A stretch of DNA of 64,000 nucleotides from positions 290,965-354,964 of the forward strand of contig JAHFLF010000001.1 of the NCBI GenBank assembly GCA_023255625.1, written 5' to 3'. Origin of the DNA: Candidatus Harrisonbacteria bacterium (lineage in GTDB: Bacteria > Patescibacteriota > Minisyncoccia > UBA6257 > 1-14-0-10-44-23). Numbering within the stretch: position 1 is the stretch's first letter; each line of letters opens with the position of its first letter. Below are positions 3,725 to 61,189 of the stretch, piece by piece. The position numbers were made by a program, and so were the translations under genes. The notes under the pieces were generated by a model, which did no database searches, was not told the origin of the DNA, and saw only the letters and a program-made list of their open reading frames with translations.

Positions 3725-4086
3725 ATATGGAATTCCTGTTCAAATCAAAAACGATGTTTGCCAGAATGTTTCACACTCTTTTAGAGTATTTTGCAAATCC
3801 CCGTTCAGAACAATTGTTTCGCATCTTTTAAACATTTTTTGCAAGTGTAAAACATCCTGTAAAACAAAACCTGCCCGCCTTTGGAGGGAATGTTTTACGC
3901 TTGTGTTTTACAAAAAATTAGCGTGAAACAACGAATATCCGGCAAAATAATGCGGCAATCCGGCAATTGCCTTATTTTTTGCCGTATTACAAAATTCACA
4001 AAATTATCTTATACCCATATTGGCTTGCTGATCAACATTGCCGCCGTATATACCATCAGATGAAGCATGCTCGCTTGACTATCATG

Positions 4087-4104
4087 CAGCGTACTAGTAC
4101 GCTG
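4087..4104. promoter_or_regulatory. 18-bp perfect palindrome CAGCGTACTAGTACGCTG upstream of the TrpR-like gene
   Basis: Perfect palindrome with GTACTAGTAC core, about 50 bp upstream of the start at 4158. Confidence 0.5.
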
Positions 4105-4157
4105 GTACATAGAGACGGTGTCTTTGAGTAATCAATATTAGTAACCAATAAAATAAT

Positions 4158-4442
4158 ATGAATAACCAATACAAAGAAGAGTTAGTAGAACTGCTGCGCA
4201 CTGCAGCTAAAGACGCGAAACTGTTTGAGGCGGTGCTACGCGACATACTCACGCCGTCTGAATATAGAGAAATTGCTAATAGGTGGCAGATAGTTAAAAA
4301 ACTCGCGATGGGAGAGGACCAGCGCGCGATTGCCCAGGATCTTAAGGTTGGTATCACGACCGTCACTCGCGGCGTCCATGTGCTAGAAAACTCGGGCGGG
4401 GGATTCAACCAAATGCTTAGTAAACTCGTCGCACGAAAATAG
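4158..4442 (+). CDS. TrpR/YerC-YecD family (Trp-repressor-like) DNA-binding protein
   Basis: 94 aa. LTPSEYREIANRWQIVKKLAMGEDQRAIAQDLKVGITTVTRG matches the YerC/TrpR-like HTH family. Confidence 0.6.
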   Translation: MNNQYKEELVELLRTAAKDAKLFEAVLRDILTPSEYREIANRWQIVKKLAMGEDQRAIAQDLKVGITTVTRGVHVLENSGGGFNQMLSKLVARK

Positions 4443-4476
4443 CGCCGCTACCCTTCGGCTCATATGACCACTTGAC

Positions 4477-4510
4477 TATGTTACAGTGTACTAGTACACT
4501 GTAACATAGC
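4477..4510. promoter_or_regulatory. 34-bp perfect palindrome CTATGTTACAGTGTACTAGTACACTGTAACATAG downstream of the TrpR-like gene
   Basis: Perfect palindrome centred on GTACTAGTAC. Could be an operator, a bidirectional hairpin, or a recombination site. Confidence 0.5.
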
Positions 4511-16984: not shown

Positions 16985-17100
16985 TTATTCTCCCTTTGTA
17001 AAAGGGAGGGGACCGCAGTAGCGGTGAGGGATTTAGTTCCGCCCCCTAGTTTAAATCCCTCCCGGCTACTGCCGTACTCCCTTTAGGAAAGGGAGAATAA
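16985..17100. repeat. inverted pair of REP/MITE-like elements
   Basis: TTATTCTCCCTTTGTAAAAGGGAG-GGGACCGCAGTAGCGGTG-AGGGATTT followed by its inverted counterpart AAATCCCTCCCGGCTACTGCCGTACTCCCTTTAGGAAAGGGAGAATAA. Confidence 0.8.
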
Positions 17101-17106
17101 ATGTTT

Positions 17107-17138
17107 CAGGGCCGGTTTGCTTTCGCAAACCGGCCCTG
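17107..17138. terminator. perfect hairpin CAGGGCCGGTTTGC-TTTC-GCAAACCGGCCCTG
   Basis: Perfect 14-bp stem at the border of a GC-rich block. Confidence 0.45.
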
Positions 17139-17275: not shown

Positions 17276-17667
17276 CTACTGAAAACCGTCCAGCTCGAAA
17301 CGGACAGGCTCCACGGTGGTGCGCAGCCCAAGCGCCTTCTCGACCGTCGTTCTCTCAGCATCCTCGAGAAAGAGGCGCCCGTGCTTCAACTGCCTGCACT
17401 CGGAAGTGTCAGATCTCCTGTAGGCCACCACTGAGTACCATCCCTGACTCCGAACCTCCACCGTGAAAGGGGCGAAGGACGGAGAAACCCAGAAACATGT
17501 GAATGGGGAGTCGAGACCCGACACTGAGTCGGGAATGATCACCCACTCGTCTTTCCCGTTGGGAGCGACAAAGGGATTGAGCTGCTCCAGGGCGGCCCTG
17601 ACCGCCTCCATCTGCTTCTGATCCAATCCCTCGAACCTCAGCCTCTTCCCGATCATCACTGACATGC
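17276..17667 (-). CDS. hypothetical protein (about 130 aa) in small GC-rich island
   Basis: ATG at 17667 preceded by AAGGAGGACGC. Confidence 0.5.
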
Positions 17668-17908
17668 GTCCTCCTTTGCCAGTGCGGTCAACCATTGACC
17701 CCGCCTGACAAGAGTAAGCATGCGCTCAACTTGACATATTTGCAACATTATTTTATACTATATTTATACAGATATTGACTTTATATAATAAAAACATCAT
17801 AATAACGACATCAAAATAAATGACACTTCTTCGCTCTAGTGAGCTACGAAGTGCAAGCAGTTTCCGCTATGGTGAGCTACGGACTGCAGGCACTTTATTA
17901 AAATAACC

Positions 17909-17956
17909 AAATCCCTCCCGGCTACTGCCGTACTCCCTTTAGGAAAGGGAGAATAA
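17909..17956. repeat. REP/MITE-like element, identical to the copy at 17053-17100
   Basis: 48-nt identical copy AAATCCCTCCCGGCTACTGCCGTACTCCCTTTAGGAAAGGGAGAATAA. Confidence 0.85.
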
Positions 17957-20271: not shown

Positions 20272-20335
20272 TCCTCGTAGTTCAACTCCGACGCTCACAG
20301 TAGTAAGGTCGGAGCCCCGACCTACTGCGTCGGGG
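20272..20335. repeat. about 64-bp direct repeat, copy 1 (nested hairpin GACGC-tca-CAGTAG-AGGTCGG-agcc-CCGACCT-CTACTG-CGTC)
   Basis: Repeated at 20695-20758 with two mismatches. The two copies flank the GIY-YIG gene and tRNA-Arg. Confidence 0.8.
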
Positions 20336-20346
20336 TGAATAGAATT

Positions 20347-20613
20347 ATGATCGGATATGTTTACATATTGCGAGCTGCCGATGACCGCTTGTATGTCGGC
20401 AGCACCAGCAATTTAGAATATCGTATGCGCCAACACATAGCTGGTCATACGCAAACAACTCGCAATATGAAAAAATTTGCGCTTGTTTTTAAGCAAGAGA
20501 CGGCTAATTTGAAAATAGCCCGTGCTGCTGAACGAAAGCTCAAAAAACTAAAACGCAAGGATTACCTAGAAAAAATCATCAAAGACGGCTATATTAAGAT
20601 ATTACCCCCATAG
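20347..20613 (+). CDS. GIY-YIG nuclease superfamily protein (YhbQ/UPF0213-like)
   Basis: GYVYILRAADDRLYVGSTSNLEYRMRQH carries the GIY...YIG motif. The 3' end overlaps tRNA-Arg. Confidence 0.65.
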   Translation: MIGYVYILRAADDRLYVGSTSNLEYRMRQHIAGHTQTTRNMKKFALVFKQETANLKIARAAERKLKKLKRKDYLEKIIKDGYIKILPP

Positions 20614-20674: not shown

Positions 20675-20694
20675 ACAAAATGATAAGATTGGGT

Positions 20695-20758
20695 AGTTCA
20701 ACTCCGACGCTCACAGTAGTGAGGTCGGAGCCCCGACCTACTGCGTCTGGGTGGATAA
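20695..20758. repeat. about 64-bp direct repeat, copy 2
   Basis: See 20272-20335. Confidence 0.8.
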
Positions 20759-20808
20759 GACAAGGGGTTTCTAACCCCTCAATCTAGGTTCGATTCCTAG
20801 CGGGGACA
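20757..20808 (+). other. tRNA-like 3' fragment (anticodon-arm-like AGGGG-TTTCTAA-CCCCT, T-arm CTAGG-TTCGATT-CCTAG, CGGGGAC-A-CCA) with no adjacent 5' half
   Basis: Canonical T-loop and encoded CCA. The only candidate 5' acceptor strand (GTCCTCG) lies at 20274-20280, immediately before repeat copy 1. Confidence 0.4.
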
Positions 20809-20868
20809 CCATGGATAGTTAATCGGTTAGTCAGTTAGTTGGTTAGTTGGTAAAACGAAAAACTAATT

Positions 20869-21354
20869 ATGCAAAAAGGTGTTGATTTCATCGGCGTATC
20901 GGTTTCGTACTTTTGCCACGACGGCAAGGGGAATTATTTATTCCAAAAACGGGGATCCGGGGCTCGCGATGAGAACGGCAAGTGGGACTGTGGTGGCGGG
21001 GGATTGGAGTTCGGCCAAACAGTCGAGGAGTGCCTGAAGGCGGAAGTCAAAGAGGAATACTGCGCTGATATTTTGGATTCGGAATTCATTGGATACTACG
21101 AGGCATTTCGTACTATCAAAACACAAAATCCCTCACCGCAAGGCGGTCCCCTCCCTTTAGAAAAGGGAGAAGGAAAGCCAACGCACTGGATTGCTCTCCA
21201 CTTTAAAGTCTTGGTTGATCCAAAACAGGTCAAGAATGGAGAGCCGCACAAGTTTGACGAGATTAAATGGTTCCGACTTGATAATTTACCGCCAGCATCA
21301 GAACTTCACTCACAGCTGCCGGCGGAGATTGAGAGGTATAGGGGGAAATTGTGA
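20869..21354 (+). CDS. NUDIX hydrolase carrying an in-frame REP-like repeat insertion
   Basis: Nudix box GGGGLEFGQTVEECLKAEVKEEYC. Residues NPSPQGGPLPLEKGEGK are encoded by a copy of the repeat family at 21126-21172. Confidence 0.65.
   Translation: MQKGVDFIGVSVSYFCHDGKGNYLFQKRGSGARDENGKWDCGGGGLEFGQTVEECLKAEVKEEYCADILDSEFIGYYEAFRTIKTQNPSPQGGPLPLEKGEGKPTHWIALHFKVLVDPKQVKNGEPHKFDEIKWFRLDNLPPASELHSQLPAEIERYRGKL
21126..21172. repeat. REP/MITE-like element inserted in frame in the NUDIX gene
   Basis: AAATCCCTCACCGCAAGGCGGTCCCCTCCCTTTAGAAAAGGGAGAAGG. Confidence 0.7.
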
Positions 21355-26932: not shown

Positions 26933-27275
26933 GACAATAAATGATTGGAATAAGTGAGAAGCGCAGATTTTGATGCAGTTCTAGGCGCGGGAGGGCGGTT
27001 TGTGAGCCGTACTTTTATATAAGTACGGTGAGCAAACCGACGGGACCCGCAACAACGAACTGCTCAAAATATGCATTTCTCACACACAATAACTCTGTAG
27101 TTGCCCCAAATTACGATTCCGGTTCTTGCGATTCCTCCGAAGGAGGATCCGCCTATGGCGGAAAAGTGTCGTGACTTAGAGCTCCACGACCAACACTCTT
27201 TTTCTATCAATCCAGTATATAAATATACTGAAGTGTCGCTTTTTCCTAATCTCCATTTACAGAGAAAGAAAAAAG

Positions 27276-29180
<1,905 letters not shown>

Positions 29181-29630
29181 TAATAAGTAATTTGAAATTC
29201 ATCTAGCCGAAGCCAGATGAATAACAAACACTCTTGTTTTGGGACAACTACACAATTATTGTTGCATACTTTATATCTGCTTGAAGGATATAAAGATTTT
29301 GATTTCCTAATCATTCATTTATCTTTATAGTTTTTAGTATCTTTCGATACAAACATTTTCAAAGAACGAAAGGTATACTCAATTCACTTTTTGAAGTGAA
29401 AATAATACACCCGTCTCGGCGACCTATCGTATGATCTGCAATACGACGACGAGACGGATGCGCTGGTCTGATATATGTTTTTCCGCCAGAGGCGGATCCG
29501 CCTTCGGCGGACAATTTGTACGAATTTCGCGGGATGTTTCGCTGGTTCGTTTGTACTGCCTTAAGCCAGTACTAATGTGGCTTCTAGTATAGTCGACCGA
29601 ATAATAAAGTCAAGACCTTATTAACGAAGC

Positions 29631-34411: not shown

Positions 34412-35131
34412 CTAATACATAATTACTGCAAAACACCCTCTGATAGTTTCTGCGCCTCGTGTGAATCGTAGCTCTCCCTTTTCTGTGTCTACGCGCACTT
34501 CGGCATCGCCATTCTTGAAATAGAGATTAATTTTATTTTCCAAAATAACTTTGCGGACAAATTTTAATCCGTTGCCGCGCGCCTCCGGCGCGCGCCCGGA
34601 AACGACTTCTGTAAATGCGACCTGCACGGCCTCCAGATGGCTGGCCAGTTGCGGCCGCACTTGGCGCAGTGTAGCGAGAATCCCCACGCCTCGGTCCGCC
34701 AAAACAATTCGTCTTTTGGCAAGATCATATCCGAAAAAAATGCCGGCAGTATCAGGCCATTTACCCAGGTTATGCGCAAACGAATTGTCGCCAATCTCAC
34801 TCGCGGCTGCTGTTATGAGAAATCCCAACTTTTCCAGGCCATCTGTAGCAGCGAGAAAAGTTTCCAGCTTGCTGATTCTTCCTTGGAACACGGAGCTATT
34901 GGCGCAATAAAACTGACTAGAAAGGTCACCGCCGTCTTTTGCCCATTCATAAGCAGTTTTCTGTATATCGCCGGCGAAAAGGTTCAGATCCGCCTGGTGA
35001 TAATAACGATGAGTGCCTCCTTCTTTGCGGATAGCTAACAGTTTTCCGGATTTGTCCCACCGGCGCAAAGTATCAATAGACACGCCTAAAAATTCCGCCG
35101 CTTCAGCAATATTTAGTAAGTTTTCTTCCAT
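34412..35131 (-). CDS. MerR-type HTH fused to a GHKL (histidine-kinase-like) ATPase domain
   Basis: N-terminal LLNIAEAAEFLGVSIDTLRRWDKSGKL (MerR/excisionase HTH). C-terminal EIGDNSFAHN (N-box) and LADRGVGI (G1-box). ATG at 35131. Confidence 0.55.
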   Translation of the reverse strand: MEENLLNIAEAAEFLGVSIDTLRRWDKSGKLLAIRKEGGTHRYYHQADLNLFAGDIQKTAYEWAKDGGDLSSQFYCANSSVFQGRISKLETFLAATDGLEKLGFLITAAASEIGDNSFAHNLGKWPDTAGIFFGYDLAKRRIVLADRGVGILATLRQVRPQLASHLEAVQVAFTEVVSGRAPEARGNGLKFVRKVILENKINLYFKNGDAEVRVDTEKGELRFTRGAETIRGCFAVIMY

Positions 35132-35213
35132 ACCTACAAAGCATAGCATCTTAGAATAAACTATGCAAATAATTAGCAAAACTATGCAAAGTATATAAAA
35201 CTATGCATTTAAA

Positions 35214-35259
35214 ATACTCCCTTTCATAAAGGGAGTACGGCAGGGCCGGGAGGGATTTT
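35214..35259. repeat. REP/MITE-like element copy (CTCCCTTTCATAAAGGGAGTA-CGGCAGGGCCGGG-AGGGATTTT)
   Basis: Same family as 16985-17100. Confidence 0.7.
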
Positions 35260-35913
35260 GATTGATTAATTTTATCAATATTTTCACAGAAATATGACAT
35301 TTTGGGGCATATCTAGGAAGTCCTAAAAAGCTAGTATTCATAAGGATTTTAGCCCATTTTAGGATTATATTTTGCCACATGTACTTGACAGATTTGTCAA
35401 ATGGTGCTATAGTGTCTTTGTAAGATGACAAATGGAAGGAGAGCGGCGCTAGGCCGGATCCGCGCCAAATGAAGTCTTACAAAGCCGCAGCACCAGAGAT
35501 TGCACGGCAATCACGGTGCAGGGCAGGCATTTGAAATAGAAAGCGTTAGTCGAATATCGCTAGATGTATGGTTTCCACCCCTGATCCGGACACTCAACGG
35601 ACGGTATCTGCGCCGGTAAGGCAGAAAAGAGGAGGGAGTGGTCACTGAAAAGCAAACATCTAATTGTATTCTGTTGCCCTTAGCGACCTGGGAAGTCGAG
35701 CTGGAGAGCTCGACCGAAGGGTAAATAGGCAACACAACGGCTACATATCACTTAATTCATAGAGGAGAGAGTGATAAGGAGATCCGCTGGACACAAGAAC
35801 CTAAACCCGTCTTGCGTCCAGAAATCTCTTTTTGGCGTAGAGCCAGATCGAGCGAACCTTGAAAACTAAACCCAGCACTAACTTTTGCCTAACCCAGCAC
35901 TAACTTAAATAAG

Positions 35914-36168
35914 TTAATGCTGGGTCAAGCTTTGCCGCAAACGGAGTTTTAACTTCGCCAGCGCCCAGCCATGGTACTTAAGTTGCTTCTCGCGCTCTCG
36001 AGCGTCAGCTTCAACGCGATAGGCCTCGTAGTATATCAGTTCCCACTTATGCCCTCGCGTAGAAAAAACCTTGCCGTTGTTATGTGCGGCAAAGCGAACT
36101 CGCAAATCGTTTGTACTTCCAGTGTACAACTCATTGAGTTCATTACGAATTACATAAACATAATGCAT
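35914..36168 (-). CDS. GIY-YIG nuclease superfamily protein (YhbQ-like), second copy
   Basis: MHYVYVIRNELNELYTGSTNDLRVRFAAHN carries the GIY-YIG motif. Flanked by inverted ACCCAGCACTAACTT copies. Confidence 0.65.
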   Translation of the reverse strand: MHYVYVIRNELNELYTGSTNDLRVRFAAHNNGKVFSTRGHKWELIYYEAYRVEADAREREKQLKYHGWALAKLKLRLRQSLTQH

Positions 36169-36300
36169 GCAGTGATTCTATCACTGCATGCAGGCAAAAG
36201 TTAGTGCTGGGTAAATAGAAACGAATTGTGAGTAGGCGATACTCGGGGATTATATACCGGAGTGCCTATCAGCAACGTTCGCGGATTCCTGTGATTGAAT

Positions 36301-36447
36301 GATTCTCCCTTTCCTAAAGGGAGTACTCCGACGTTACGTCGGAGGGAGGGATTTAAGTCCTCCAAAAAACCAATTGATTCGCAGACCCGGCTTTTCTTAT
36401 TCTCCCTTTCCTAAAGGGAGTACCGCCACTAGGCGGGGAGGGATTTT
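36301..36447. repeat. two tandem REP/MITE-like elements (36301-36355 and 36396-36447) at the left border of the largest GC-rich island
   Basis: GATTCTCCCTTTCCTAAAGGGAGTA-CTCCGACGTTACGTCGGAG-GGAGGGATTT and CTTATTCTCCCTTTCCTAAAGGGAGTA-CCGCCACTAGGCGG-GGAGGGATTTT. The central hairpins differ but keep their pairing. Confidence 0.8.
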
Positions 36448-45028: not shown

Positions 45029-45317
45029 AATGGGAAAGGGATAATTAAAATAATAAAATTTTCGATGAAGAAAAAATATGCACTGGAAATCATCAGGAAT
45101 TTTTTCGTTCCTCAATTCTACTCCCCGTTCTCAAGACCTGGCAAGAGTGGATAACTCAAAAATGTTCAAGCTAAAAAAGATTTTTAACAAGTGTCAACGA
45201 CGCCAACCTAAAAATCGCTTCACAAACCAAAAAATCAGCTCCGCGGGGCTGATTTTTTGGGCCTTTTTCTTAGTTTCGACCAATTAACCAACTAACCAAC
45301 TAACTGATGAACTAATT

Positions 45318-45675
45318 CTGGTGCCGCGGGTCAGAATCGAACTGACAACCACTTCCTCTTCCAAGGATATTCTCTGCATTACTGCAAAGTTTGGACTATA
45401 TCATCTCCCCAGAGGGGAGTCGGGCGCTATCTGCGAGGTTATTGTTGGGACTCACTCGCTAGTCTCTACACCTGCCTCCGCTAAAGCTACTGCAGGCAAG
45501 CCTTCTTCAACGATTTGGCTTGCTTGCAATCCGTAGCCTCCCGGCGAAGGATTGGCTCGGGATTTTCCTCTCACAAGGAGTTCCCCCGAATTCACCCAAT
45601 TATTCAATCCATATTACTATGGAAGGCCCCAAAGAGTTATCAATAGGGAAATGCTCTACCATTGAGCTACCGCGG
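45318..45675 (-). tRNA. tRNA-Phe (anticodon GAA) interrupted by a 283-nt group I intron between U33 and G34 (exons 45644-45675 and 45318-45360)
   Basis: Exon 1 GCCGCGGTAGCTCAATGGTAGAGCATTTCCCT. Exon 2 GAAGAGGAAGTGGTTGTCAGTTCGATTCTGACCCGCGGCACCA. Intron carries group I R-like (TAGAGACTAG) and S-like (GATATAGTCC) elements, a GGGG internal guide, and ends in G. Confidence 0.7.
45361..45643 (-). mobile_element. group I intron within the tRNA-Phe anticodon loop, with no homing-endonuclease ORF
   Basis: See the tRNA-Phe entry. The 5' exon ends in U and the 3' exon follows a G. Confidence 0.6.
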
Positions 45676-56798: not shown

Positions 56799-57525
56799 AC
56801 AAAATTGCTAAATCGCGGCTTAGCCGTACGAGCATTAAACGATAATCTGTATCAGCACGATAATCAAAAATAGCCAGGGCCGTTGGATCGGCAAAGTCAG
56901 GCGCACCAGCAAAAAGTACAATTACTTTTTTTGTGGCTAATTCACTTTGCAGTGGTTTCAGCGAAATATTCACCTTCGTAAGAGCAGGAATGAGTTCGGC
57001 GGGCGGGCTGTCTACATAATAAAGGTCAAGCGGGAAAGGAAATTTGCCACCGCCCTGTTTGCCAGCATCGCGTTTCTTTTTATACTCCTCCTGCGCATTT
57101 TCAAGCAAAAAAAACTTTGTTACACCAACGGTTTTTGCGGCCTCCCAGCACGACATACAGGCCCAATAATGACCGGCAAGATACAGCTCGCCGCCTGTCG
57201 CATCTAAACCCTTTTCTTTTATTTCTCTGGCGGCGTTCGGTTCGGCATGATTACTAAAATGGCAGTGATCTGGGCAAAATTCATAATCAGTACCACTTTT
57301 GCTTCCCATCGCGATGCGTGGGCAAAAAGTTTCGTGCGCCGATCCATTGTGCGTGGCCGCAAGCACTTTTCCGTTTTTTACGACAACTGCAGCGGTTGGA
57401 TTACTTACCTCCGGGTGCTCCTGCCGCATCTGCTCACAGATTGCGAGTGCCTGCGCCATAAACGGATTACTCGCAGGAACAGTTGCCTGGGTGCCCCACG
57501 AGGGAATAATTTCATCAAGAATCAT
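56785..57525 (-). CDS. CMP/dCMP deaminase zinc-binding family protein with C-terminal extension
   Basis: HAEPNA...ACMSC zinc-binding motifs (HAE and CxxC). Confidence 0.55.
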   Translation of the reverse strand: MILDEIIPSWGTQATVPASNPFMAQALAICEQMRQEHPEVSNPTAAVVVKNGKVLAATHNGSAHETFCPRIAMGSKSGTDYEFCPDHCHFSNHAEPNAAREIKEKGLDATGGELYLAGHYWACMSCWEAAKTVGVTKFFLLENAQEEYKKKRDAGKQGGGKFPFPLDLYYVDSPPAELIPALTKVNISLKPLQSELATKKVIVLFAGAPDFADPTALAIFDYRADTDYRLMLVRLSRDLAILFDEN

Positions 57526-57634
57526 AAATTTTCAATTTCTAAGTTTCAATTTTCAAACAATGATTTAATTTCGGAATTTCTAAATTGAGAATTGTTTAGA
57601 AATTAGAAATTGAGAATTAGAAATTATTTTGCCG

Positions 57635-60421: not shown

Positions 60422-60503
60422 CCATCCCGCGCCCGATTCTTCCATCAGTATACTAAACTGACGGCCGTCAGTTTAGTATACTGAACGCAAAACGCAAGAA
60501 AAA

Positions 60504-61112
60504 TTATGCGAGGTGTTCGAGTGTTCCGGTTCCGCCAACCTCAACAATCTCAACAAAATCTGCCAGCTTGCGCATAGCCAAATCTTCAATGAGTTTCCGG
60601 GGAATGGCAACCTTGCCAACCCACACGCTCTGCTGTAACTGCTCAAGACCAATCCGTTTTAAAACTGCCCGCAACCATGCTCTATCATTTCTGCTTTTTT
60701 CGGGAATATCATACACGACGATAACGACTTTCTTGCCGGGCGACAACTCGTAGCCAAAACCAGGCAGATTATGCTTCCGCTCGTACTTAAGACGGCGCAG
60801 TTTTTCACGACCTACCTTTGTTAAACGTAATCTTACTTTACCCTTGATAGTTTCTTTAGAAAGCATTCCTTGTTTAGATAGGTAGCGGACCATCATAGAA
60901 TACCGATGATACTGCTGTCGAGGCGCCGCTTCAAAATGTACCGTATTGCGACCAAATGCCCGCTCAATCTCTCCGGCAGACGCTCCATAACCGGCCTCCA
61001 AAATCGCGCCCACCATCGCCGGTACTGTCATTGCCGCATCTTCAAGGGTATTTAAAATACGAAAAATAACATCGCCGCTACCGCGCCTTTTGTTGTTAGT
61101 TCTTTTGTTCAT
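60504..61112 (-). CDS. PaaX-like winged-helix regulator
   Basis: N-terminal wHTH. The C-terminal VVIVVYDIPEKSRNDRAWLRAVLKRIGLEQLQQSVWV resembles the PaaX middle domain. Confidence 0.4.
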   Translation of the reverse strand: MNKRTNNKRRGSGDVIFRILNTLEDAAMTVPAMVGAILEAGYGASAGEIERAFGRNTVHFEAAPRQQYHRYSMMVRYLSKQGMLSKETIKGKVRLRLTKVGREKLRRLKYERKHNLPGFGYELSPGKKVVIVVYDIPEKSRNDRAWLRAVLKRIGLEQLQQSVWVGKVAIPRKLIEDLAMRKLADFVEIVEVGGTGTLEHLA

Positions 61113-61189
61113 ACAACAGATAAAGTATACTAAAATGACGGCCGTCAGTTTAGTATATCATAGATATGGCGAGATAGGATGGTTGGTAA

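Follow-up and report, generated by a model that had tools for sequence, protein, structure and literature searches.

Dispersed repeats with the predicted fold of an intrastrand DNA triplex accompany DUF559 endonuclease genes in many bacterial lineages

INTRODUCTION

The 64-kb stretch of contig JAHFLF010000001.1 analysed here (positions 290,965 to 354,964; Candidatus Harrisonbacteria bacterium, Patescibacteriota), referred to as the window, encodes a ZIP transporter, TrmB, MerR, an extracytoplasmic function (ECF)-type sigma factor and a NUDIX hydrolase, together with scattered tRNAs. Among these genes lie exactly seven copies of a short repeat, against 0.01 expected by chance from shuffled sequences. 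The original prediction, made from the letters of the window, had seen in them a dispersed family resembling repetitive extragenic palindromic (REP) sequences or miniature inverted-repeat transposable elements (MITEs). The dispersed family is real, as judged from the seven copies and from a distribution that crosses phyla; the plain two-hairpin REP architecture gave way to a predicted class II intrastrand DNA triplex motif, in which a mirror block covaries with one hairpin arm. The window copies are probably 45–55 bp dispersed class II 'potential intrastrand triplex' (PIT) repeats, selfish in nature and linked to genes of the DUF559 endonuclease family.

Repeats of this kind were reportedly described as BoxC by Bachellier et al. 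in the 1990s and as PIT elements by Hoyne and Maher in 2000–2002. For intrastrand triplex repeats, known in Escherichia coli from the 1990s on, we know of no function, mechanism of spread or in vivo triplex evidence that has been established.

RESULTS

Seven copies in the window

The pattern of hairpin 1, CTCCCTTT-NNN-AAAGGGAG, matched the window seven times (0.01 matches expected from shuffles), as did the 3′ block G[G/T]GAGGGATTT (1.33 expected). Unrelated copies served to build a covariance model, which, with its filters off, returned the same seven copies in the 64 kb (E ≤ 2e-10) and nothing weaker, and a general triplex-motif finder recovered them again. Direct reading and the covariance model confirmed all seven places given in the original prediction; the 4-nt loop it had assigned to hairpin 1 was wrong, since a pattern with 4 nt matches nothing and the true loop is 3 nt long. 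Each window copy is laid out as CTCCCTTT-N3-AAAGGGAG-N14-22-GAGGGATT (pyrimidine arm A, loop 1, purine arm B, linker and third block C), and the 5′ flank of the repeat is (T)TATT or TAATT, or lineage-specific. The copies starting at 16985 and 21126 carry GTGAGGGATTT where the others have GGGAGGGATTT, and copies 2 and 3 are identical in 48/48 nt.

A third block that mirrors the purine arm

The conserved 3′ block, GAGGGATT, repeats the purine arm of hairpin 1, AAAGGGAG, in mirror image and does not complement it. When the seven copies were folded as single-stranded DNA (ssDNA) by Watson–Crick pairing, two hairpins formed and the third block always stayed unpaired, though highly conserved. The order of a 5′ homopyrimidine, a complementary homopurine and a third block of purines and T was kept in all seven window copies and in ~200 others; in the latter, which come from many phyla, both arms of hairpin 1 and the third block changed in concert under the mirror rule. 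Where 'conserved ends' with hairpins had been proposed, the hairpins stand; the 3′ block is not a mere conserved end, since it mirrors the purine arm and covaries with it.

To count these changes, all perfect Y5-TTT-N3-AAA-R5 hairpins were taken in, and the block downstream was compared with the mirror of R5. Purine arm GGGAG was followed by GAGGG in 149 cases, GGAGG by GGAGG in 24, GGGGG by GGGGG in 17, GAGAG by GAGAG in four and GAGGG by GGGAG in three. This family thus comprises five classes, and at least 27 distinct purine arms were seen overall. The asymmetric classes (GGGAG/GAGGG and GAGGG/GGGAG) exclude a direct-repeat relation as well as a Watson–Crick relation with the pyrimidine arm; the alternative pairing of block C with arm A was rejected on these grounds, complement and direct-repeat rules both failing. 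In a model-based alignment the mirror rule was kept by 140 of 146 distinct copies, and two of the six exceptions were A-to-T changes in the third block, which T·A-T triads permit. A survey independent of the family covered 688 strand-instances of perfect 8-bp homopurine hairpins (344 hairpins, each counted once per strand). A perfect mirror block lay ≤55 nt downstream in 323 of the 688, as against 18 upstream, 12 in shuffled sequence and 41 under a direct-repeat rule. With the scan family left out, 116 of 260 strand-instances still followed the mirror rule, with 27 different purine arms.

In a purine-motif triple helix the antiparallel third strand sets a G against each G and an A or a T against each A, which gives G·G-C, A·A-T or T·A-T triads. 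In all families the mirror pentamer is followed by ATT(T), which sits opposite the AAA of the purine arm. The reverse strand of the element, read in the pyrimidine motif, yields six canonical triads only, four of them C+·G-C. According to the part of the TMECO paper that cites its reference 43 (PMC4666352), RNA forms pyrimidine-motif triplexes and does not form purine-motif ones; the selected fold was accordingly taken to be that of the forward strand in its DNA form. On this evidence the mirror covariation is the signature of a predicted class II intrastrand purine-motif DNA triplex of the BoxC/PIT/TMECO kind (class II following the scheme of Hoyne/Maher and Holder et al.), and a single strand would fold into a triplex in vivo. 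The argument is the one that established RNA secondary structures: independent compensatory changes, here three-way and numbering dozens, provide evolutionary evidence that the DNA triplex fold is under selection.

The linker hairpin

The linkers between the purine arm and the third block are highly diverse (174 different ones among 202 copies), and most fold as hairpins of 3–13 bp, with a mean minimum free energy of −5.7 kcal/mol versus −1.9 kcal/mol for shuffles. All five modelled linker pairs showed changes on both sides among 146 distinct copies from many genomes, a set with 94.5% of its cells paired. Overall, 98.2% of the linker alignment cells were paired versus 82.4% in shuffles, and the covariation score was 0.299 versus 0.092, a value reached by none of 500 shuffles, in an alignment that had been fitted to the model. 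The claim that the variable central hairpin keeps its pairing is borne out by these double changes. Loop 1 is 3 nt long; loop 2, the linker, measures 14–22 nt in the window and 3–40 nt elsewhere and is usually a hairpin, which places it outside the short loops (1–6 nt, both loops) of the ITxF criterion. A plain linker of 5 nt is found in some lineages; what looks like a linker in Verrucomicrobia and Chloroflexota is a predicted extension of the triplex to 11 triads, with a loop of 4–5 nt (CCTCTCCCTTT / AAAGGGAGAGG / GGTGAGGGATT).

Distribution and sister families

A scan of one genome per species with a pattern of 25 specified bases found at least 119 loci and at least 135 copies. They occur in many classes of Patescibacteria and in Elusimicrobiota (including two cultured Elusimicrobium genomes), Flavobacteriales/Chryseobacterium, Berkiellales, Verrucomicrobia, Chloroflexota, Chlamydiota, Clostridia, Methylomirabilis and Acinetobacter. 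Although many of the source genomes come from metagenome binning and bear taxon labels assigned automatically, the repeats in cultured Elusimicrobium, Acinetobacter and Escherichia coli genomes support the taxonomic breadth. The triplex-repeat kind is thereby extended to Patescibacteria and at least eight other phyla. Flanks and linker type differ lineage by lineage, and occurrence is patchy. A metagenome scan with the ZIP protein for closer relatives and empty sites gave ≤62% identity and served as an unbiased background set; the 571 kb around ZIP-transporter homologues, on 80 other contigs of the Candidate Phyla Radiation (CPR), held only seven homopurine hairpins. The exact repeat pattern had no match in 2.9 million viral contigs, and carriage by phages was dropped as an explanation. 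The literature searched held no paper that describes this repeat family in CPR.

At CPR loci an inverted member of a sister family, with hairpin CCTCCTTT/AAAGGAGG and end GGAGGATTT, often stands after a copy; a third family combines CCCCCTTT/AAAGGGGG with GGGGGATTT. Since the ends of both families differ together with their stems, the 3′ block changes together with the hairpin stem. The spacers of gene-less doublets range from 0 to ~40 nt. True BoxC-like copies, CCTCTCCC-N-GGGAGAGG-ATTGA-GGTGAGGG, are present in the same genomes (loci L051, L057, L064 and L098).

A second CPR superfamily of class II triplex repeats was also observed, with the layout Y8-gcctg-R8-hairpin-mirror block-gggaga, at loci L025, L032, L053, L059, L099 and L110 (for example on the − strand near 5801 of L059 and on the + strand at 4243 and 4593 of L099). 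It has at least four specificities: AGGAGGGG / GGGGTGGT, AGGGGGAA / AAGGGGGT, AGGGGAGA / AGAGGGGT and AGGGAAGG / GGAAGGGT.

DUF559 endonuclease genes beside the repeats

When 1,676 open reading frames (ORFs) from the 119 repeat loci and the window were clustered all-against-all, a single recurrent nuclease family emerged, DUF559 (PF04480; E = 1e-25 to 1e-36; five proteins tested, all confirmed). In these element-selected loci all seven DUF559 genes or remnants lay 0–137 nt from an element. At locus L007 an element is followed by the ATG of a DUF559 gene, placed right after GGGAGGGATTT, and by an inverted sister element, through which the ORF runs; with junctions marked by slashes, the arrangement is GGGATTT/ATG...GTAG/AAATCC, so that the ORF lies exactly between the two tails of a doublet. 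At locus L047 (Clostridia) a DUF559 gene likewise stands between two inverted copies. Locus L029 has the same two elements as L007 with only ~25 DUF559 codons between them and would represent, as one example, a deletion intermediate towards the common gene-less doublet.

Because the first loci had been selected by their repeats, the association was examined in reverse, on DUF559 loci picked regardless of repeats. With a DUF559 protein as query, tblastn against plasmid and chromid records yielded 40 records, and 16 taxonomically diverse loci were inspected with 600 nt on each side. Class II triplex motifs were present in 13 of the 16, mostly no farther than ~100 nt from an end of the gene and in many cases flanking it: in Azospirillum, Photobacterium, Shinella, Sphingomonas, Sinorhizobium, Neisseria, three Deinococcus, Methylobacterium, Pseudanabaena, Klebsiella and, weakly, Synechocystis. 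Motif clusters numbered 32 in 24 kb of DUF559 loci versus eight in 200 kb of the same replicons (none in three of four); in 571 kb of unrelated CPR DNA there were three. Triplex-repeat-flanked DUF559 genes occur in CPR, Clostridia, Bacteroidota, Verrucomicrobia, Proteobacteria, Cyanobacteria and Deinococcus, and the cross-phylum association of DUF559 genes with class II repeats is strong. In the literature searched, no paper ties DUF559 or YcjD to BoxC or to triplex repeats. The DUF559 genes are small, free-standing and patchily distributed; the closest solved structure is 3hrl, an 'endonuclease-like protein' of Neisseria gonorrhoeae (E = 1e-12).

The DUF559 gene of E. coli K-12, ycjD (1351407–1351760), lies 168 nt from TMECO no. 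9 (BoxC no. 9; 1351204–1351239), and its stop codon is overlapped by a partial BoxC hairpin. The 12-nt length difference published for sequence types ST69 and ST182 at the 3′ end of ycjD (PMC12817139) lies at this same end of the gene. The gene is present in 3,378 of 5,426 complete E. coli genomes. In those without it, similarity is lost ~40 nt before BoxC no. 9, and the eef efflux operon is found in its stead, between fabI and sapF. A clean presence or absence of ycjD and BoxC was therefore discarded; the eef operon in ycjD-less strains indicates replacement, not simple insertion. A 2026 paper places ycjD in the position of eefRABCD and infers two or more independent losses of eefRABCD (PMC12817139). 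The space between BoxC no. 9 and ycjD also holds a duplicated piece of the gene's 3′ end; this piece and the partial BoxC hairpin belong to positions 1838–1860 and 1942–1964, and 1897–1919, of the K-12 locus, L205.

Copies inside genes

Copy 4 lies in frame within the NUDIX hydrolase gene, as had been predicted, and the gene is genuine by its Pfam match (Table 1). The copy encodes ...NPSPQGGPLPLEKGEG... and supplies most of a 17-residue insert, ...IKTQNPSPQGGPLPLEKGE... Among the 120 best homologues listed, which are named as Patescibacteria, most are 142–145 aa long and the insert is shared by only two relatives (84% and 82% identity); an orthologue at 78% identity is without it. This comparison answers the question of lineage specificity in the affirmative. 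At the DNA level the filled site reads CAAAAT/CCCTC...GGGAGAA/GGAAAG and the empty one CAAAAT/GGTAAG, in a single pair at 78% protein identity; since CAAAAT is present in both, the terminal AAAT/ATTT may pre-exist in the target.

The surface loop that holds this insert carries another, 8-residue insert (PFGSAQDK or SFGSAQDK) in orthologues P0003 and P0004 (alignment A1, columns ~150–165); two unlike inserts at one loop mean that it accepted insertions at least twice. A string coding for ...FAQDK, similar to the 8-residue insert, was seen inside a long linker at locus L082.

Elsewhere, single copies or doublets lie in frame in at least eight genes, each confirmed by Pfam domains that flank the insert: two AddA-like helicase-nucleases, UvrA, UvrC, alanyl-tRNA synthetase, a Mur ligase, RsmB/F and a glycosyltransferase. 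In-frame copies in essential genes matter for the annotation of the small CPR genomes and for the reading of protein 'insertions'.

Neighbourhood of the copies

Copy 1 begins 4 nt past the stop codon of the ZIP transporter gene and forms with copy 2 a tail-to-tail inverted doublet with a spacer of 17–18 nt. On the + strand, the purine arm AAAGGGAG of copy 3 lies 9 nt upstream of the ATG of the TrmB-family gene, where it incidentally acts as its Shine–Dalgarno (SD) sequence. Copy 5 is upstream of a divergently oriented MerR-family gene, and copies 6 and 7 form a same-orientation tandem at the left edge of a segment of 59% GC. The clustering of copies at island borders, put forward in the original prediction, is anecdotal with only seven copies.

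Some further observations concern the same places. Between the identical, directly oriented copies 2 and 3 lies an ORF of 139 aa in which no recognisable domain was found, and a terminator-like hairpin stands beside copy 2, between it and the 3′ end of this ORF. Short-read contigs of the source organism (L203 and L204, from Logan assemblies) stop inside copies 1 and 3, which shows the family to fragment short-read assemblies.

Table 1. Coordinates of the repeat copies and of other features of the window
Feature	Position	Strand	Parts or remarks	Score
Copy 1	16985–17034	+	A 16990–16997; loop 16998–17000; B 17001–17008; linker with GC hairpin 17009–17025; third (predicted reverse-Hoogsteen) block C 17026–17033	44.1 bits, E = 9e-12
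Copy 2	17053–17100	−	A 17088–17095; B 17077–17084; linker 17062–17076; C 17054–17061	51.3 bits
Copy 3	17909–17956	−	A 17944–17951; B 17933–17940; linker 17918–17932; C 17910–17917	
Copy 4	21126–21174	−	A 21162–21169; B 21151–21158; linker 21135–21150; C 21127–21134	39.9 bits
Copy 5	35212–35258	+	A 35217–35224; B 35228–35235; linker 35236–35249; C 35250–35257	45.3 bits
Copy 6	36300–36354	+	A 36305–36312; B 36316–36323; 8-bp-hairpin linker 36324–36345; C 36346–36353	55.7 bits
Copy 7	36397–36446	+	A 36402–36409; B 36413–36420; linker 36421–36437; C 36438–36445	65.0 bits
NUDIX hydrolase gene	20869–21354	+	161 aa; host of copy 4	Pfam E = 1.9e-12
TrmB-family gene, ATG	17961			
MerR-family gene	34412–35179	−		
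139-aa ORF	17276–17695	−	between copies 2 and 3	
Terminator-like hairpin	17109–17136			
16S rRNA gene	27274–29184	−	1,911 nt	
Inverted repeat in 16S gene	28818–28978		similar units near 57520–57630	
Group I intron with adjoining stretch	45279–45644	−		Rfam 60.9 bits
tRNA-derived stretch	45279–45342		reverse complement of 20745–20811	
tRNA-Arg(TCT), 3′ part and downstream flank	20745–20811			
First GIY-YIG gene	20335–20613	+	between direct repeats 20277–20341 and 20693–20757	Pfam E = 8e-14
Second GIY-YIG gene	35914–36168	−	between inverted sequences at ~35876 and ~36197	Pfam E = 1.5e-15
GC-rich segment	36450–40200			
Promoter and ORF-free stretch	35385–35900			
31-nt palindromic box	2554–2625, 4079–4109, 4476–4509		four copies	
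34-nt perfect palindromes	60447–60482, 61124–61157		flank ORF 60504–61112	

Other features of the window

The 16S rRNA gene is 1,911 nt long against a model of 1,533 positions and has an insertion of ~380 nt; its interior holds a 68-nt inverted repeat of TTAGAAATT / TTGAAAATT units. A group I intron adjoins a stretch that matches, in reverse complement, tRNA-Arg(TCT) over its 3′ part and the flank downstream of it, and the place is probably an intron-containing tRNA gene missed by ARAGORN. The 16S insertion, the scattered tRNAs and this intron at first pointed to an organelle, an origin discarded in view of bacterial genes (for the sigma factor, TrmB, MerR and NUDIX) and of homologues in Patescibacteria. 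Two small, free-standing GIY-YIG nuclease genes, the first between 65-nt direct repeats (95% identical) amid tRNA genes and the second between inverted CCCAGCACTAACTTTTGCC / GGCAAAAGTTAGTGCTGGG, look like mobile cassettes distinct from the triplex repeats.

The segment to the right of copy 7 has 59% GC versus ~47% elsewhere and ORFs that overlap on the two strands, and it may represent a foreign island; its longest ORF, the only one scanned, has no Pfam domain, and the segment has no Rfam match. A good sigma-70-like promoter (TTGACA, 17 nt, TATAGT), followed by ~500 nt that contain GC-rich helices, no ORF and no Rfam match even at E ≤ 10, may mark an undescribed non-coding RNA. There are, besides, a 31-nt palindromic box (CTATGTNNCAGTGTACTAGTACACTGTAACA-like), operator-like, around two small genes, and two nearly identical 34-nt palindromes (AGTATACTAAACTGACGGCCGTCAGTTTAGTATA) 677 nt apart.

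DISCUSSION

A model for the fold and for its spread

In the fold that we propose, the homopyrimidine arm CTCCCTTT and the homopurine arm AAAGGGAG of a single DNA strand would form a Watson–Crick hairpin over a 3-nt loop, and the third block, GAGGGATT, would fold back antiparallel into its major groove through G·G-C, A·A-T and T·A-T triads, eight in the window copies and 9–11 in other phyla; the linker, a small covarying GC hairpin, would take the place of the second triplex loop. The autonomous form would be a cassette of ~0.5 kb, made up of an element, a DUF559 gene and an inverted element. Its DUF559 nuclease, a Vsr-like PD-(D/E)XK enzyme, would nick at or near the folded or palindromic repeat, and the nick would allow repair or recombination to copy the cassette and its orphan derivatives elsewhere. 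The window's doublets and singlets would be gene-less derivatives of the cassette, with DUF559 as the enzyme of spread. The repeats themselves we infer to be selfish DNA and not a regulator, given the in-frame copies in real genes, the lack of orientation bias and of SD enrichment (see below) and the identical 48-mers.

The wider proposal, that BoxC/PIT/TMECO repeats and their hairpin-loop variant are the ends and orphans of one cross-phylum mobile element, with DUF559 as its enzyme and the triple helix as a recodable recognition module, is put forward tentatively, as somewhat nearer to doubt than to belief. If true, it would give a function to DUF559 and YcjD and explain both the spread of BoxC and its unstable sites, and the covariation would be phylogenetic evidence for the formation and selection of a DNA triplex in vivo. 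DUF559, which includes YcjD of the model organism E. coli, is a concrete candidate for the partner enzyme.

Several points weigh against the triplex and its mobilisation by DUF559. The circular dichroism (CD) and nuclear magnetic resonance (NMR) evidence for such a triplex comes from TMECO oligonucleotides, the fold here being deduced from covariation, and in vivo dimethyl sulfate (DMS) footprinting of TMECO on duplex chromosomal DNA showed no triplex (PMC4666352). The ATT tail could perhaps be conserved as the spacer between an SD-like block and the DUF559 start (GGGAGGGATTT-ATG in L007 and L029). As for the enzyme, the class II motif was absent from three of the 16 DUF559 loci chosen regardless of repeats, the 64-kb window has no DUF559 gene, and the polarity of the repeats relative to the gene differs, with tails inward in CPR and Clostridia and heads inward in Deinococcus; DUF559 could also target the repeats instead of mobilising them. 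No filled/empty pair was close enough to give exact insertion boundaries, the NUDIX pair being the best, and neither the identical copies 2 and 3 nor the NUDIX site showed a target-site duplication.

Alternative explanations

Three other explanations were weighed. A cis-regulator acting as RNA, in which hairpin 1 would sequester an SD-like purine tract and serve as a translational switch, mRNA stabiliser or terminator, as has been proposed for some REPs, has in its favour the stable hairpins, purine blocks that look like SD sequences (GGAGG, GGGAG), a sister-family pyrimidine arm, CCTCCTTT, equal to the 3′ end of 16S rRNA, and the TrmB-family gene and several genes elsewhere that start 4–10 nt past a purine block. 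We regard it as very unlikely. The orientation of the copies with respect to neighbouring genes is close to even, coding-region copies occur in both orientations, and start codons stood at SD spacing in 17 of 404 possible positions versus 13 in displaced controls, which is no enrichment; a portable ribosome-binding site was rejected on this count. Rfam 15 gave no match to the window repeats at gathering thresholds and only noise at E ≤ 10, so that a known RNA family was set aside as well. The mirror relation between B and C is, moreover, meaningless for Watson–Crick folding of RNA; purine-motif triplexes are reportedly absent from RNA, in the passage cited above, and the pyrimidine motif of the reverse strand is left with its few triads, most of them C+·G-C. 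The original prediction had spoken of an RNA or ssDNA structure under selection: a nucleic-acid structure is upheld, its RNA version is disfavoured by these results.

Ordinary REPs, or the bacterial interspersed mosaic elements (BIMEs) that they form, mobilised by a REP-associated tyrosine transposase (RAYT; an IS200/IS605-like Y1 HUH transposase), with the 3′ block as a protein-binding or cleavage site, would explain the similar size, the dispersed and mostly intergenic copies and the inverted doublets of two sub-types, which resemble E. coli BIMEs. The absence of target-site duplication, as in IS200/IS605 elements, and the ATTT/AAAT already present at one end of the empty NUDIX site fit it too. 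A fixed protein site, however, does not predict that block C tracks the stem, always as its mirror, across 27 or more arm types. The copies lack GTAG, the hallmark of REPs, and neither a RAYT nor any recurrent Y1-transposase-like family turned up near the repeats in the clustering of 1,676 ORFs, a clustering that included no search aimed at RAYT and no RAYT profile. This explanation seems to us most improbable. Less remote, though still unlikely, is that the repeats are immobile and serve as landing or homing sites of a mobile DUF559 gene, having multiplied by replication slippage or gene conversion at a polymerase-stalling structure. The exact position of the L007 ORF between the doublet tails speaks for it, as do the group I intron homing endonuclease in the Vsr/DUF559 clade (PMC3424549) and the replacement of the eef operon by ycjD and BoxC no. 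9, with at least two independent losses reported. Against this, the deletion derivative at L029 shows that doublets can arise from filled cassettes, the polarity and spacing of the flanking repeats vary among lineages, and gene-less doublets, with their variable spacers, offer no fixed palindromic target; orphan copies also vastly outnumber DUF559 genes and occur within essential genes. A selfish repeat of the class II triplex kind, with DUF559 as its candidate mobilising enzyme, remains the explanation that we prefer.

Comparison with known systems

With REPs and BIMEs the family shares short, GC-hairpin-containing, mostly extragenic units and mosaic inverted doublets of two sub-types, and both break assemblies and mark variable regions; it differs in having no GTAG 5′ of the palindrome, in a mirror (triplex) relation that REPs lack, and in an associated nuclease that is DUF559 (PD-(D/E)XK) and not an HUH enzyme. 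Rickettsia palindromic elements (RPEs) are ~100–150 bp long and, to our knowledge, have not been reported to form triplexes. The likeness to RPEs is one of behaviour, both being short palindromic selfish repeats tolerated in frame in essential genes; no sequence relationship was seen by eye, and the host ranges differ. As in MITEs, gene-less inverted doublets coexist with a gene-carrying form, and an origin by internal deletion is exemplified once, by L007 as the full cassette and L029 as its derivative. Unlike in MITEs, no DDE transposase is involved and single units also occur alone; these units are not bounded by terminal inverted repeats, and no target-site duplication was found at the sites checked. 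DUF559 belongs to the same clade as E. coli Vsr and the Vsr-like homing endonuclease genes (PMC3424549), but without any intron or intein context here.

The closest relatives are the BoxC repeats of E. coli, rediscovered as PIT and then as TMECO, with the consensus 5′-CCCTCNCCC-N3-6-GGGNGAGGG-N3-GGGNGAGGG (PMC4666352). In TMECO oligonucleotides, CD and NMR showed the class II intrastrand triplex (Holder et al. 2015, PMC4666352). The TMECO repeats are dispersed without strand bias and reported always intergenic, with frequent inverted pairs that always join type A to type B; no promoter or terminator activity was found, and they are linked with local genome instability (PMC4666352). The database search of Holder et al. 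admitted loops of 1–6 nt only (PMC4666352), and the present family would therefore have been missed. It is a hairpin-bearing variant of the BoxC/PIT/TMECO kind, not previously described. The window copies do not match the TMECO consensus sensu stricto; the family differs in sequence, with an A/T-rich half (TTT/AAA/ATT), has eight predicted triads versus nine, and has a loop 2 of 7–40 nt, usually a covarying GC hairpin, instead of 3 nt, beyond the 1–6 nt of ITxF. The family also has many orthogonal specificity classes, is found in Patescibacteria, Elusimicrobiota, Bacteroidota, Berkiellales, Verrucomicrobia, Chloroflexota and others, and has in-frame copies in NUDIX and at least eight other genes, in contrast to the always intergenic TMECO. 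The two have in common the order of the blocks (pyrimidine arm, short loop, purine arm, loop, mirror block of purines and T), dispersal in many copies without strand bias, inverted pairs of two sub-types, and a neighbouring DUF559 gene, which for TMECO no. 9 is ycjD; and the extended-triplex, short-loop form of the Verrucomicrobia and Chloroflexota copies is the BoxC design.

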